From Eledone cirrhosa (taxonomy: Eukaryota), in the NCBI GenBank assembly GCA_964016885.1, contig CAXHJY010001257.1, forward strand, positions 62,001 through 126,000: a stretch of DNA of 64,000 nt. The letters run 5' to 3'. Below are positions 19,133 to 25,570 of this stretch, in pieces. A program made the translations under genes and the position numbers. Within the stretch, counting starts at the first letter, position 1. Every line of letters begins with the position of its first letter. The notes beneath the pieces are model-generated. The model did not search any database. It was given only the letters and a program-made list of their open reading frames with translations, and was not told the DNA's origin.

Positions 19133-19292
19133 TCTGTCTGTCTGTCTGTCTGTCTGTCTGTCTGTCTGTCTGTCTGTCTGTCTGTCTGTCTGTCTGTCTG
19201 TCTGTCTGTCTGTCTGTCTGTCTGTCTGTCTGTCTGTCTGTCTGTCTGTCTGTCTGTCTGTCTGTCTGTCTGTCTGTCTGTCTGTCTGTCTG
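19133..19292 (+). repeat. (TCTG)40 microsatellite, 5' flank of the Tx1 element
   Basis: Perfect TCTG run of 160 bp. Confidence 0.97.
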
Positions 19293-19466
19293 AGGATAGT
19301 AGACGTGTGTCATATCGCTCTGTGATTTGGATTTTTACCTGCTAATTTTGTGAGTGGATTTTTTTGAATTATTTTGTATAATTAACTGTAACCCCTAGTC
19401 TGGGACTCTAGACGTAGGGTAAATATATTTTCACCCCTTTTGGGGTGAAAAATAAATATTTGAGAA

Positions 19467-21221
19467 ATGTTTATCGATATCGTTGATAACGATATCGTCG
19501 AAAACGATATCGCCATATTGGAAGCGAACGCCACGCCGACCAAAAAAACAAGCGGGAAAGAGGGAACAACAGTTCAAACTGTTGAACAACCCCTCCTCTC
19601 CAATGAAAAAAAGAATTTCAATTCAAATGAAAAAATTAATTTTCAAGAAAAAAATAACACCACAAATAAGGAAACCAACAACATTACAACAACAAACAAA
19701 GACAAAATTTCTTTTGCCCAAACACTCAAGAGAGCCACGGAGTACAAAGCCATTGACATCACGAACGCCAAGGAAAATTTGCTAGAGGCTAGAAAATACG
19801 TATCTTTTGGGGTGGATGGTTCTTTTACGATCAACTCCCCAGAAGAAGTGCGTGAACAGATTTACAAGAATACCGTAAGCTTCAGAACCATAACCAACGA
19901 AACGAGAAAGCCAGCGCAATTGACCGAAAGTCAAATCGAGCTGGTTCTGAAAGAAATTAAAAATGACATACTCTTTATTCAAAGAGGAAAGCTGTATGCC
20001 AGCATTATGGTCCGAATGAAGGACGAAATGCTGGCTCAGAAATATTCGGTGGCACCTATAGTGTCACCACAATACACCTTCTTCCCCACATATAAAGGAA
20101 GAAGAACACAAAGGATAAGAATGTGGAGCCCTACGCCAGAAATTAACATCTGGTCCGTCCTAACAGGATTTACCGACCTAGATAAGGACATACTAATTTC
20201 AGCAGGGGAGTCCACCAGTGGACTGTTCGGGGGGAAAAGTCTGGAGGTTCTCTTACAGATGACACCTGAGAGAATCTCCGGAATACCCGACCGAGTGCTA
20301 CTGGATGGGCGAACCTACATAAATATCACAGTGGAAGGCAGGAGACCCTCATGTTACCACTGCGCTGGCAGAGGTCACCTGAGGACGGCCTGCCCTCTAC
20401 TAACAACAAAAAAACCACTGCTACAAACACCACAACAACAAAAACAACCAGCACCACCATCACAAAAACAACAAAATACACTACCATCACCACCAGAACA
20501 ACAAAAACCAACAACAACACCACCACCACCACCACAACAACAACAACATCAACAACAGCTCAAGAAAACAACCCAAAACACGGTCCCACCCAGCCCCACC
20601 CCACAGAACACAAATACAAAAACAGTTCATACACAACCCGGAGATATACCCCTCCCCTCCAATACGGAAGAGGAGCTCATATCGTCGGAAGACGAGGGGG
20701 CTCCCTTCCAAAAAGTGAAAAGAAAAAAACGTACACACACCACAACAACAAAAATAACCCCACCTGACAACACAACACAGACAATAAAACGCAAACTCAC
20801 TCAACAACAACAAGCAAAAACAAACACAACAACACAAAAACTCTACACATACATAAACAAAAACAATGAAAACCTAACTTTAAAAATAGAAACCAACCCT
20901 TCGATACAAACCGAAGGGCCGAATTTCGTAACGGCAATGGGGCTCCCTAACCTGAAAATGGTGAAAATCCCACTTGACATTTTTAAAACTTTAAAAGACA
21001 TGTACCCTGAGGACGTGGGCCCACCCTGCACCAGGCCACTCAACCGCGTCCTCCTGAAAGGTTTTCCCCTCCCCTCCTCAAACACCCACACAACTCCAAA
21101 GATCCCAACCCCTCCACACACCAATACCCCCACACCACCACAAACCACCACCCCACCCATCAACCCCGCCACCAGCCCCATGGAAACTGAGCGACCCGAA
21201 CCCCGGGACGCAGAGAGGTAA
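19467..21221 (+). CDS. LINE ORF1 (gag-like nucleic-acid-binding protein, 584 aa)
   Basis: ATG-started open frame upstream of an RT ORF; single CX2CX4HX4C knuckle (CYHCAGRGHLRTAC) followed by a P/Q/T-rich low-complexity region and a basic cluster (KVKRKKR), as in Tx1-type ORF1s. Confidence 0.88.
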   Translation: MFIDIVDNDIVENDIAILEANATPTKKTSGKEGTTVQTVEQPLLSNEKKNFNSNEKINFQEKNNTTNKETNNITTTNKDKISFAQTLKRATEYKAIDITNAKENLLEARKYVSFGVDGSFTINSPEEVREQIYKNTVSFRTITNETRKPAQLTESQIELVLKEIKNDILFIQRGKLYASIMVRMKDEMLAQKYSVAPIVSPQYTFFPTYKGRRTQRIRMWSPTPEINIWSVLTGFTDLDKDILISAGESTSGLFGGKSLEVLLQMTPERISGIPDRVLLDGRTYINITVEGRRPSCYHCAGRGHLRTACPLLTTKKPLLQTPQQQKQPAPPSQKQQNTLPSPPEQQKPTTTPPPPPQQQQHQQQLKKTTQNTVPPSPTPQNTNTKTVHTQPGDIPLPSNTEEELISSEDEGAPFQKVKRKKRTHTTTTKITPPDNTTQTIKRKLTQQQQAKTNTTTQKLYTYINKNNENLTLKIETNPSIQTEGPNFVTAMGLPNLKMVKIPLDIFKTLKDMYPEDVGPPCTRPLNRVLLKGFPLPSSNTHTTPKIPTPPHTNTPTPPQTTTPPINPATSPMETERPEPRDAER

Positions 21222-21244
21222 GTGCCTCTTTCTTTGCCACCAAC

Positions 21245-24200: not shown

Positions 24201-24682
24201 CTCTGCCCGTTCGGGATAAGCTCTACAGACACGGGCGCCCGGGTAGGGACCCCTCGAAAAAGATCTGTCCCAGATGCGTGCGCGACGAGGAAACCGTCGC
24301 GCACGCATTGGTGCACTGCCCGGGCGTTGCCGATCTGTGGGGCTATGTCGAACGACTGCTGTCACGGGTGGGACCAATTAGGTTGACCACCGAGTCCATT
24401 GTAACGATCAAGCCACCTCCCCCCTTCAAAAATGAAGGAGAGGCGGTCTTCCTCTGTGTAATAGCCATGGTAAAAGAGGCTATATGGTGGACGCGTCTGA
24501 AAGGGCTGAGGTCGGACACCTTTCTCTCCGGCCAACAACTGGTCCTTTTCTTCCGATACCATTTCGGAAGAAGGATCAGGATGGAGAGAGAGGTGCTCCA
24601 CTCCAGCCAGTTTTATGAAAGGTGGGTGAAAGTTGCGAGAATGGCCCGTGTGAATGGGCCTTCTCTCTACCTCAGCCTGTAG
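21245..24682 (+). CDS. LINE ORF2: AP endonuclease + reverse transcriptase + C-terminal CCHC zinc finger (1145 aa)
   Basis: APE motifs LNARGL, VYAP, GDWN, SYLDRF, SDH; GPGYWKLN linker; RT motifs KSPGLDGLP, NFRPITLLN, DQSKAFDRVDH, RQGCPLS, AYADDV, KLLGVWF; GGLG; CPRC..EETVAHALVHC. No stops or frameshifts. Confidence 0.96.
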   Translation: MAVLRVGCLNARGLGSPWKQAKLLSDLRSQCVNVMVICEARISSMRQLTPTFDDFEMHASLCQPGGGGGVVVLLQKHLGLATQTVHLDPEGRLVVLDLGNGEGEAFRLVAVYAPFGAMRSDFFHRLETFLGTSRSLLLVGDWNGILDARWDYVGACPDRGGCNSLKGLIGRFDLADRYRLDFPTVPTWTWSNNSGQSRSYLDRFLVRIKDRDFLSCPEMLMVGYSDHKLVTCVVHLDRTHRQGPGYWKLNLSLPASRAYRDRIRTLVKEQLTGAIVNNRWWGSLKREIRVVSIGVSKELASDRNRKERELVVNVEEAMRSGNVARVQASRTVLNQFFDAKHEGCVVRSKIHALGNEGTKAVSWARVTEAKSGIKSTIRSLRDQDGRLILEPKQMCEAFQRHFAELFGRGGEPVGDVDFGPYLDGLPRLSDREARSCDGPISAAEIGDVLSLCGKRKSPGLDGLPYELYINMPDLFPDLLEAVYCNWQQNGRIPCSVTKGVVSLVRKDENKGDDISNFRPITLLNAELKILAKVLAKRLALVVGGLVGDAQTCAIPSRSIHDNLHLMRYIIERVGNEPGFGGALINLDQSKAFDRVDHGYLDAVLAAAGFGPVFRGWITAMHSSRICSRVKVNGYLSEPFEITRSIRQGCPLSSLLYVLTLEPLLRKLELLQGIPLEPGLRKAVSAYADDVTVMVSTASEIEAIGTLLEEYERLTGAKLNRDKSVALQLGEWRGKAMSCDGIVGRWTEGPVKLLGVWFGPDLQVEKNWGEVTNRVFALTQKWAECKLSLKGRAEVANAYIASVIYYRLTVVPCPGEILAKMERALFYFLWKKRSPLVRRSICCQHPLKGGLGMPWLKMRKHALRLRHLHVFLTGQPVWAPFVRRAFPRLVSLTELQSWVKQRPRKLGDWHTECAQALTALWQADPAIDGDSTSSFYRGLVVSGCDDALGEALGMEEDELASLFGRTFGPGPMDNFQKSLAWQCYRGALPVRDKLYRHGRPGRDPSKKICPRCVRDEETVAHALVHCPGVADLWGYVERLLSRVGPIRLTTESIVTIKPPPPFKNEGEAVFLCVIAMVKEAIWWTRLKGLRSDTFLSGQQLVLFFRYHFGRRIRMEREVLHSSQFYERWVKVARMARVNGPSLYLSL

Positions 24683-24906
24683 GTGGAACAGAAAGAAGGG
24701 AGCACCCTCTCTTTGTGCTCCCGTGGAGAAGGGTCGCACACTTTTTTTCGGGGGTGTGTGTGACCCCAAAACGATCCCTCCCTATTGAGGACCTTCTTGT
24801 TATTATTTTGTTTGTTATATTTTTCTTACTCGATTTTTATGTAAACTCCCCCCACCCATGTACATGTCCCTTTCTTTTGTGCCCTAGTGGCAAATAAACA
24901 GAAATT

Positions 24907-25570
24907 TGTCTGTCTGTCTGTCTGTCTGTCTGTCTGTCTGTCTGTCTGTCTGTCTGTCTGTCTGTCTGTCTGTCTGTCTGTCTGTCTGTCTGTCTGTCTG
25001 TCTGTCTGTCTGTCTGTCTGTCTGTCTGTCTGTCTGTCTGTCTGTCTGTCTGTCTGTCTGTCTGTCTGTCTGTCTGTCTGTCTGTCTGTCTGTCTGTCTG
25101 TCTGTCTGTCTGTCTGTCTGTCTGTCTGTCTGTCTGTCTGTCTGTCTGTCTGTCTGTCTGTCTGTCTGTCTGTCTGTCTGTCTGTCTGTCTGTCTGTCTG
25201 TCTGTCTGTCTGTCTGTCTGTCTGTCTGTCTGTCTGTCTGTCTGTCTGTCTGTCTGTCTGTCTGTCTGTCTGTCTGTCTGTCTGTCTGTCTGTCTGTCTG
25301 TCTGTCTGTCTGTCTGTCTGTCTGTCTGTCTGTCTGTCTGTCTGTCTGTCTGTCTGTCTGTCTGTCTGTCTGTCTGTCTGTCTGTCTGTCTGTCTGTCTG
25401 TCTGTCTGTCTGTCTGTCTGTCTGTCTGTCTGTCTGTCTGTCTGTCTGTCTGTCTGTCTGTCTGTCTGTCTGTCTGTCTGTCTGTCTGTCTGTCTGTCTG
25501 TCTGTCTGTCTGTCTGTCTGTCTGTCTGTCTGTCTGTCTGTCTGTCTGTCTGTCCGTCCGTCCGTCCGTC
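24907..25570 (+). repeat. (TCTG)n microsatellite (~160 units, ending in TCCG variants), 3' flank of the Tx1 element
   Basis: Perfect TCTG run to ~25554, then a few TCCG units. Confidence 0.97.

Follow-up and report, generated by a model that had tools for sequence, protein, structure and literature searches.

An intact, probably Tx1-type retrotransposon flanked by (TCTG)n microsatellites in Eledone cirrhosa

The element and its flanking arrays

We analysed a stretch of 64,000 nt from Eledone cirrhosa (assembly GCA_964016885.1, contig CAXHJY010001257.1, positions 62,001 to 126,000 of the forward strand), referred to below as the window. At positions 19133-25570 the window contains a compact element with two long open reading frames (ORFs), bounded on both sides by arrays of the tetranucleotide TCTG; comparisons with DNA outside this interval cover the other 57,562 bases. 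The element is probably an intact and recent Tx1-type (L1 group) retrotransposon of the non-LTR class (LTR, long terminal repeat), from a cephalopod lineage, and we lean slightly towards the view that its family prefers (TCTG)n as a target. The features of the locus, in which UTR denotes an untranslated region, are as follows.

19114-19132, plus strand: Helitron-like 5' head of a putative non-autonomous host element, resembling the 5' end of a dispersed repeat
19133-19292, plus strand: 5' flanking (TCTG)40, perfectly pure
19293-24906, plus strand: unique element, 5,614 bp, between the two TCTG arrays
19293-19466, plus strand: 5' UTR, 174 nt, with two hairpins
19467-21221, plus strand: ORF1, 584 amino acids, uninterrupted
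21245-24682, plus strand: ORF2, 1,145 amino acids, uninterrupted, 23 nt after ORF1
24683-24906, plus strand: 3' UTR of 224 nt, with GTGCC-hairpin-AATAAA and 8 further nt at its end
24907-25568, plus strand: 3' flanking TG(TCTG)161 (TCTG part to 25552), then (TCCG)4; a GTCY microsatellite

Both arrays lie on the same strand and adjoin the two ends of the element, whose 3' boundary can be placed at 24906 or 24908 (an ambiguity of 2 nt). No other pure run in the window is as long: the 3' array measures 648 nt and the 5' array 160 nt, and the next longest run is 86 nt. Outside the interval, TCTG-type runs of at least three units hold only 48 of the 57,562 bases on the same strand and none on the other, so the TCTG flanks are not a chance product of local composition. 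Neither Rfam at gathering thresholds nor ARAGORN detected an RNA gene in the window, and thus no U2, 5S or tRNA gene target lies near the element. A self-search of the window turned up neither another copy of the element nor a piece left over from one. Because that search included the DNA upstream of the 5' array, we rejected the idea that the element had inserted into the tail of an older copy.

The last letters of the 3' UTR are AATAAACAGAAATT, with no poly(A). The terminal hairpin folds; taken whole, the 3' UTR folds no better than its shuffles (z = -1.5). The 5' UTR has a z of -2.6, and its stability was equalled by 2 of 200 shuffles. A relaxed form of the end motif that we defined on sister families (described below) matches once in the window, at 24875, which is the 3' end of the element.

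The original prediction for this DNA had described a 5.6-kb element with two uninterrupted ORFs, abutted on both sides by same-strand (TCTG)n and passing from its 3' UTR straight into TCTG with no poly(A). The coordinates above bear out each of these statements, and they add two details: the (TCCG)4 that closes the 3' array, and the Helitron-like head that immediately precedes the 5' array. The element had also been called the only undamaged coding DNA in the window, which holds for long ORFs, although short host exons could be present. The window has 68 other ORFs of at least 100 amino acids; none of the 8 that we compared with Pfam matched at the curated cut-off, and by eye the other 60 look like translated simple repeats or satellites. 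As for the proposed youth of the element, the intact frames and the uninterrupted flanking arrays do suggest a young insertion, but one copy provides no measure of age or activity.

Proteins, lineage and tail-less relatives

The element has the features that define the L1 group: an N-terminal APE, a central reverse transcriptase (RT), a C-terminal CCHC motif and a separate ORF1. In ORF2, the APE endonuclease spans about residues 1-235, the RT carries YADD at residues 686-689, and a CCHC/zf-RVT region is at the C terminus (Pfam: RVT_1, E 1e-26; Exo_endo_phos, E 2e-6; zf-RVT, E 1e-5, slightly under the cut-off). The endonuclease residues N10, E39, Y112, D141, N143, D202, D226 and H227 are all there and are conserved in 33 aligned sequences. 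The predicted structure of this domain has a predicted local distance difference test (pLDDT) score of 94 and template-modelling (TM) scores of 0.82-0.84 to L1-EN structures. In a Foldseek search, LTx, a chimera that carries the Tx1L loop, was the top match (E 4.6e-19), in a tie with L1-EN (E 5.8e-19). We rejected this top match as evidence of specificity, since the non-specific L1-EN matches equally well; the model confirms the fold and carries no information on target specificity. Grafting of the Tx1L loop failed to transfer the Tx1L target, and loop sequence alone is not a predictor (PMC1950540).

ORF1 encodes two RNA recognition motifs (RRMs) and a CCHC knuckle (roughly residues 125-310), after which comes a region rich in Pro, Thr and Gln; this is the arrangement of a type I ORF1. 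The top Foldseek match of its AlphaFold model (pLDDT 71) is a tandem RRM (E 2e-5), and its look-alikes in the Atlas are CCHC/RRM proteins (0.90-0.92) and ZCCHC3-type proteins (0.89). The match to Pfam zf-CCHC is under the cut-off (E 0.067); identity to the ORF1 of a sister family is 24% (E 3e-11). It is the type I ORF1, with RRM and CCHC, and not Transposase_22, that goes with Tx1 elements (PMC5203782).

Word-based protein searches for relatives scored 8,000 candidates each. No candidate matched ORF1. Among those scored for ORF2, none was at least 80% identical, and the best relatives reached 79% over 218 amino acids, 72% over 574 and 69% over 912. The named relatives are from Argonauta hians (63%), the nearest with a plausible name, and Acanthosepion pharaonis (36-47%). 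Another relative at 63% bears the label of a bacterial metagenome-assembled genome (MAG) and may, as we read it, be co-assembled animal DNA. A tblastn search with ORF2 gave no match in plasmids and phages. In an RT tree that lacked vertebrate L1s and any named Tx1 sequence of Repbase, the element pairs with the Argonauta record (ultrafast bootstrap, UFBoot, 87), and the cuttlefish records fall in the same wider clade (UFBoot 100). By itself, this placement would make an octopod the most likely source of the window. The labels on either side of the cephalopod branch are 100, and the element joins animal Tx1-like sequences, apart from the plant outgroup. FastTree support values were left unused because re-rooting can shift labels.

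Membership in the Tx1 clade, as the original prediction proposed, is supported by ORF2 bit scores, the RT tree and the type I ORF1, and is anchored indirectly, through two elements on contigs of bacterial MAG records. In these (anchors L043:4422-4534 and L044:2726-2844), the poly(A) of the element runs into a 5S rRNA gene. Their bit scores to ORF2 are 300 and 231, compared with 175 for human L1 and about 154 for plant L1-like sequences; we take both to be of the Mutsu type. Poly(A) tails, which are typical of the Tx1 clade and not a defining trait, were seen in these two elements and in L041, and the window element has none. As a separate observation, U1 snRNA genes lie on either side of a Tx1-like element (26% identity) on a MAG contig (L039:3036-3199 and 9961-10137).

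A genome scan with the element returned 46 loci, and 40 of these (L001-L038, L042 and L046) come from 16 contigs of the record CAXXMW01, which is labelled as a bacterial MAG and evidently holds animal DNA. These are the nearest relatives with DNA context: their ORF2 is 40-43% identical to that of the window element, their ORF1 is homologous, and they fall in the same clade as the window element (UFBoot 100). They form head-to-tail arrays of a single orientation, in which mostly intact 6.4-6.8-kb units fill 83-100% of each locus. Junction sequences indicate several families, apparently one per contig, with 96.6-99.9% identity within a family. These long same-orientation arrays may be more surprising than the window element.

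Units of the sister families terminate in GGCCT(C/T/A)GTGCC-hairpin-AATAAA, and with this motif we located 53 distinct junctions (any junction without the motif would be missed). At least six A within 40 nt of the junction were found in 0/53, and two TCTG units within 60 nt in 0/53. As far as these sequences go, the absence of poly(A) is a trait of the lineage and no sign of microsatellite targeting, and TCTG is not a lineage-wide tail, which helps the interpretation of the repeat as a target. With neither a repeat tail nor poly(A) at any of the 53 junctions, the lineage would be departing from its habit if it made a long tail of TCTG. In one sister family, three copies that are truncated at the 5' side, with two distinct break points among them, follow directly on an intact 3' end, and this places the end of the family 17 nt past AATAAA; one truncated junction is present twice, in identical form (L021). 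One sister family opens with TTTGTCTGAG (L009:11161-11190 and equivalents, 21/53 junctions), the halves of which match the 3' and 5' junctions of the window element, a resemblance that was noticed post hoc and is absent from the other sister families. In its endonuclease hairpin loop, the window element nearly equals P0239 (a 65% relative) and is unlike the array-forming families. The distinct loop sequence is compatible with a different target preference and proves none.

Target, tail or host transposon

On their outer sides the arrays seem to border on host sequence, namely the Helitron-like head before the 5' array and the (TCCG)4 after the 3' array, and we regard this as suggestive. The 5' array begins 19 bp past A^TCTATATCATAATAAAAGC, where a TC start follows an A. 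Non-autonomous Helitrons and Helentrons are built in this way, with a TC start after A and a GTCY repeat close to the 5' end, and the terminal (TCCG)4 agrees with such a layout. For example, the non-autonomous element DINE-1 bears (CCGT)n(CTGT)n (PMC2374699), Hel-2 bears (CTGT)n (PMC4344730), and Cg_HINE of oyster bears a GTCY microsatellite (PMC7492417); the HINE framework is described in PMC4067079. A similar head opens a two-copy dispersed repeat of about 270 bp (9317-9584, plus strand; 27677-27414, minus strand; 90.7% identity over 269 nt), which contains a short run of GTCT, with GTCTG some 30 nt from its start, and a third Helitron-like head, at 18716, is followed by (GGTT)3. In a scan with the 24-nt head, the head at 19114 ties with the true paralogue (score 28). 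On balance we consider it somewhat more likely than not that the host of the insertion is a Helitron-like element. Because the 5' array starts 19 bp past a Helitron-like head and such elements carry GTCY repeats, the arrays may predate the insertion. Such a host, if real, would make the repeat older than the long interspersed element (LINE) and so favour a target over a tail. We rejected a copy of the family-A repeat as the host, since the right flank shares only low-complexity similarity with it.

TCTG runs are rare in the window yet adjoin both ends of the element on the same strand, and we suspect that the element entered a pre-existing GTCY microsatellite by target-primed reverse transcription. 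The microsatellite probably belonged to a non-autonomous Helitron-like element, in which it lay close to the 5' end. The LINE has a complete apparatus for target-primed reverse transcription and a tail-less end. The APE domain would nick the (CAGA)n strand. The transcript probably ends inside the repeat, because AATAAA lies only 8 nt before the array and, in one sister family, 17 nt before the end; if the ends match, about two UGUC units would be included. By base-pairing to the nicked strand, these terminal UGUC units could serve as the start for cDNA synthesis. Specificity would be a matter of nicking plus RNA pairing, and we regard pairing by read-through RNA as a candidate equal to the endonuclease. 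Annealing of read-through RNA to the target raises the efficiency of R2Ol insertion (PMC6530143). The array would grow by slippage, either while the element inserts or later. By the same logic, tandem arrays would arise in a sister family whose read-through runs into the 5' end of the next unit of its own kind, although template jumping or duplication at the DNA level could also produce them.

Several observations weigh against a preference for (TCTG)n or against parts of this mechanism. The preference is read from one copy in one window, and a target-site duplication is unreadable inside a pure array. The window is rich in microsatellites, with 8.2% of the outside bases in pure runs of at least 12 nt, and in such a genome a chance landing in some repeat would not be rare. 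Among the relatives, 0/46 loci contain a TCTG run of at least three units, and three array starts in host DNA (L002, L014 and L024) adjoin no microsatellite, so microsatellite targeting is not a trait of the lineage, and TCTG, to judge from these loci, is not its general target. The 17-nt end position is known from one sister family only, and the endonuclease of R2Ol belongs to a different class from the APE of the element. The Helitron-like head is AT-rich and only 19 nt long, and one unrelated AT-rich site scores higher (32). Downstream of the 3' array we found no Helitron 3' hairpin/CTRR end and no convincing subterminal inverted repeat: there are seven CTRR-T candidates in 25553-27100, and the best hairpin (-7.2 kcal/mol, at 25717) lies inside an internal repeat. 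Finally, a Helitron-like host would itself become a candidate for the true target.

The alternative that survives best, which we nevertheless judge unlikely, is that there is no true preference: either the element landed a single time in a short GTCY repeat, or TCTG is its own tail or terminal repeat, and slippage lengthened the arrays. Sister families without a microsatellite target fit this account, the 3' array is four times the 5' array, as a tail would give, and the TTTGTCTGAG start of one sister family allows for a short element-derived TCTG. However, TCTG runs make up less than 0.1% of the remaining window, and a repeat tail is found in no sister family. A tail also leaves unexplained the 40 units on the 5' side, which run straight from the host-like head, and the (TCCG)4 end, and the 10-nt match to TTTGTCTGAG involves only 1 of about nine junction types.

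We give somewhat less credence to the possibility that the target is the Helitron-like element near its 5' end and that the microsatellite is incidental, as might be expected by comparison with Tx1 in Tx1D or Tx1-Mar in Mariner-N4. The insertion does sit in a repeat directly behind a Helitron-like head, and Tx1 families that target transposons are common (PMC4494074). The junctions, however, lie 160 bp and more than 640 bp from non-repeat host DNA, a distance that rules against direct read-out by the endonuclease unless the arrays grew later, and the identity of the host is suggestive only. It is more doubtful still that the element is real and that sequencing or assembly consensus inflated or homogenised the length or purity of the arrays: an unbroken 648 nt, where no other pure run apart from the 5' array exceeds 86 nt, would fit such an artefact, but other repeats in the window retain interruptions, the ORFs of the element are free of errors, and TCTG at both junctions would remain.

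Overall, a family-level preference for (TCTG)n seems to us marginally the better interpretation. We speculate, well beyond this and with little confidence, that cephalopods harbour a Tx1 lineage without poly(A) in which the insertion site is programmed by the last nucleotides of the read-through RNA. Families whose read-through RNA extends into their own 5' end would make homotypic head-to-tail arrays of tens of kb, and the family described here would insert into (TCTG)n in Helitron-like elements and lengthen the repeat in each round, thereby acting as a microsatellite amplifier.

Other repeats in the window include large minisatellite arrays at 12868-16118, 32019-34395, 34923-46845, 7394-8885 and 5135-5932, with units of 51, 72, 65, 95 and 113 bp, respectively. 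The 51- and 65-bp units have a common core, and several shorter arrays stem from parts of a dispersed repeat. Cores resembling hammerhead ribozymes, chosen by eye as three of seven matches to a pattern that we take to describe the hammerhead, are at 27336, 11684 and 55341 (all minus strand); Rfam gave no hammerhead match. Those at 27336 and 11684 sit in a repeat with three copies, which possibly represents Penelope-like ends. Two short ORFs (9681-10082 and 3664-3981, both minus strand) have no Pfam match and resemble C-terminal pieces of an RTE-type LINE.

Comparison with known systems

Target-specific Tx1 elements are well established (PMC4640811, PMC3747384, PMC10088271), and L1-Tx1 elements have expanded in coleoids (PMC8967140). 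Octopus vulgaris has 13 recently active L1-Tx1 families with 421 near-full-length young insertions that total 2.29 Mb (about 5.4 kb each), and the supplement of that study contains 80 L1-Tx1 consensus families; the portions of the paper available to us give no target sites for them (PMC13282606). A tetranucleotide preference is not new for Tx1, because families that prefer TTCC or TTTC are described in PMC4494074. In the full-text literature that we searched, as far as its accessible parts go and outside Repbase and Dfam, we found no TCTG-specific Tx1 element and no tandem arrays of tail-less cephalopod Tx1 elements. The family may already be catalogued, for example in Repbase or Dfam.

If the preference is true, the Tx1 elements that prefer particular sites would gain a new target unit and a host among the molluscs. 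The element would also provide a compact, intact APE-RT protein with which to ask whether endonuclease or RNA-DNA pairing governs site choice, a standing question for retrotransposon-based gene insertion. A tail-less element and the tandem arrays of its sisters offer a natural comparison inside one lineage, and the link to very long pure TCTG runs, if true, bears on the growth of microsatellites in cephalopod genomes. If the preference is false, the element is one among many young octopus L1-Tx1 copies.

The closest parallels are Tx1 families whose preferred targets are (TC)n, (TTC)n, (TTCC)n and (TTTC)n, where a family qualified if more than 20% of its copies shared one repeat at their junctions (PMC4494074). 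Like Kibi and Koshi of teleosts, which prefer (TC)n and (TTC)n, respectively, the window element is a Tx1-type APE-RT element flanked by a pyrimidine-rich microsatellite, and the units preferred by the crocodilian Tx1-1_Crp group, (TTCC)n or (TTTC)n, are tetranucleotides, as is TCTG (PMC4494074). The window element differs from all three in its TCTG unit, its mollusc host and its single copy, whereas their specificity is drawn from many copies. It also belongs to a separate cephalopod clade, in a comparison with the three that is by description only. Xenopus Tx1 (in Tx1D) and crocodilian Tx1-Mar and Tx1-9_AMi (in Mariner and Harbinger) resemble it in lying inside an apparent non-autonomous DNA transposon (PMC4494074). 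Unlike Xenopus Tx1 and Tx1-Mar, the window element has a putative host that is Helitron-like and a site within a microsatellite of that host.

The two 5S-inserted elements are closer to the window element in ORF2 than is human L1 or the plant L1-like sequences, and differ from it in their poly(A) ends and in their target, a 5S rRNA gene. The array-forming families of CAXXMW01 share with it the GTGCC-hairpin-AATAAA end, the lack of poly(A), a homologous ORF1 and 40-43% identity in ORF2. In contrast to the window element, they are tandem, lack TCTG arrays and have a 3' UTR of about 700 nt (measured in L009). The window element stands alone, its 3' UTR is 224 nt long, and the hairpin loop of its endonuclease is unlike theirs.

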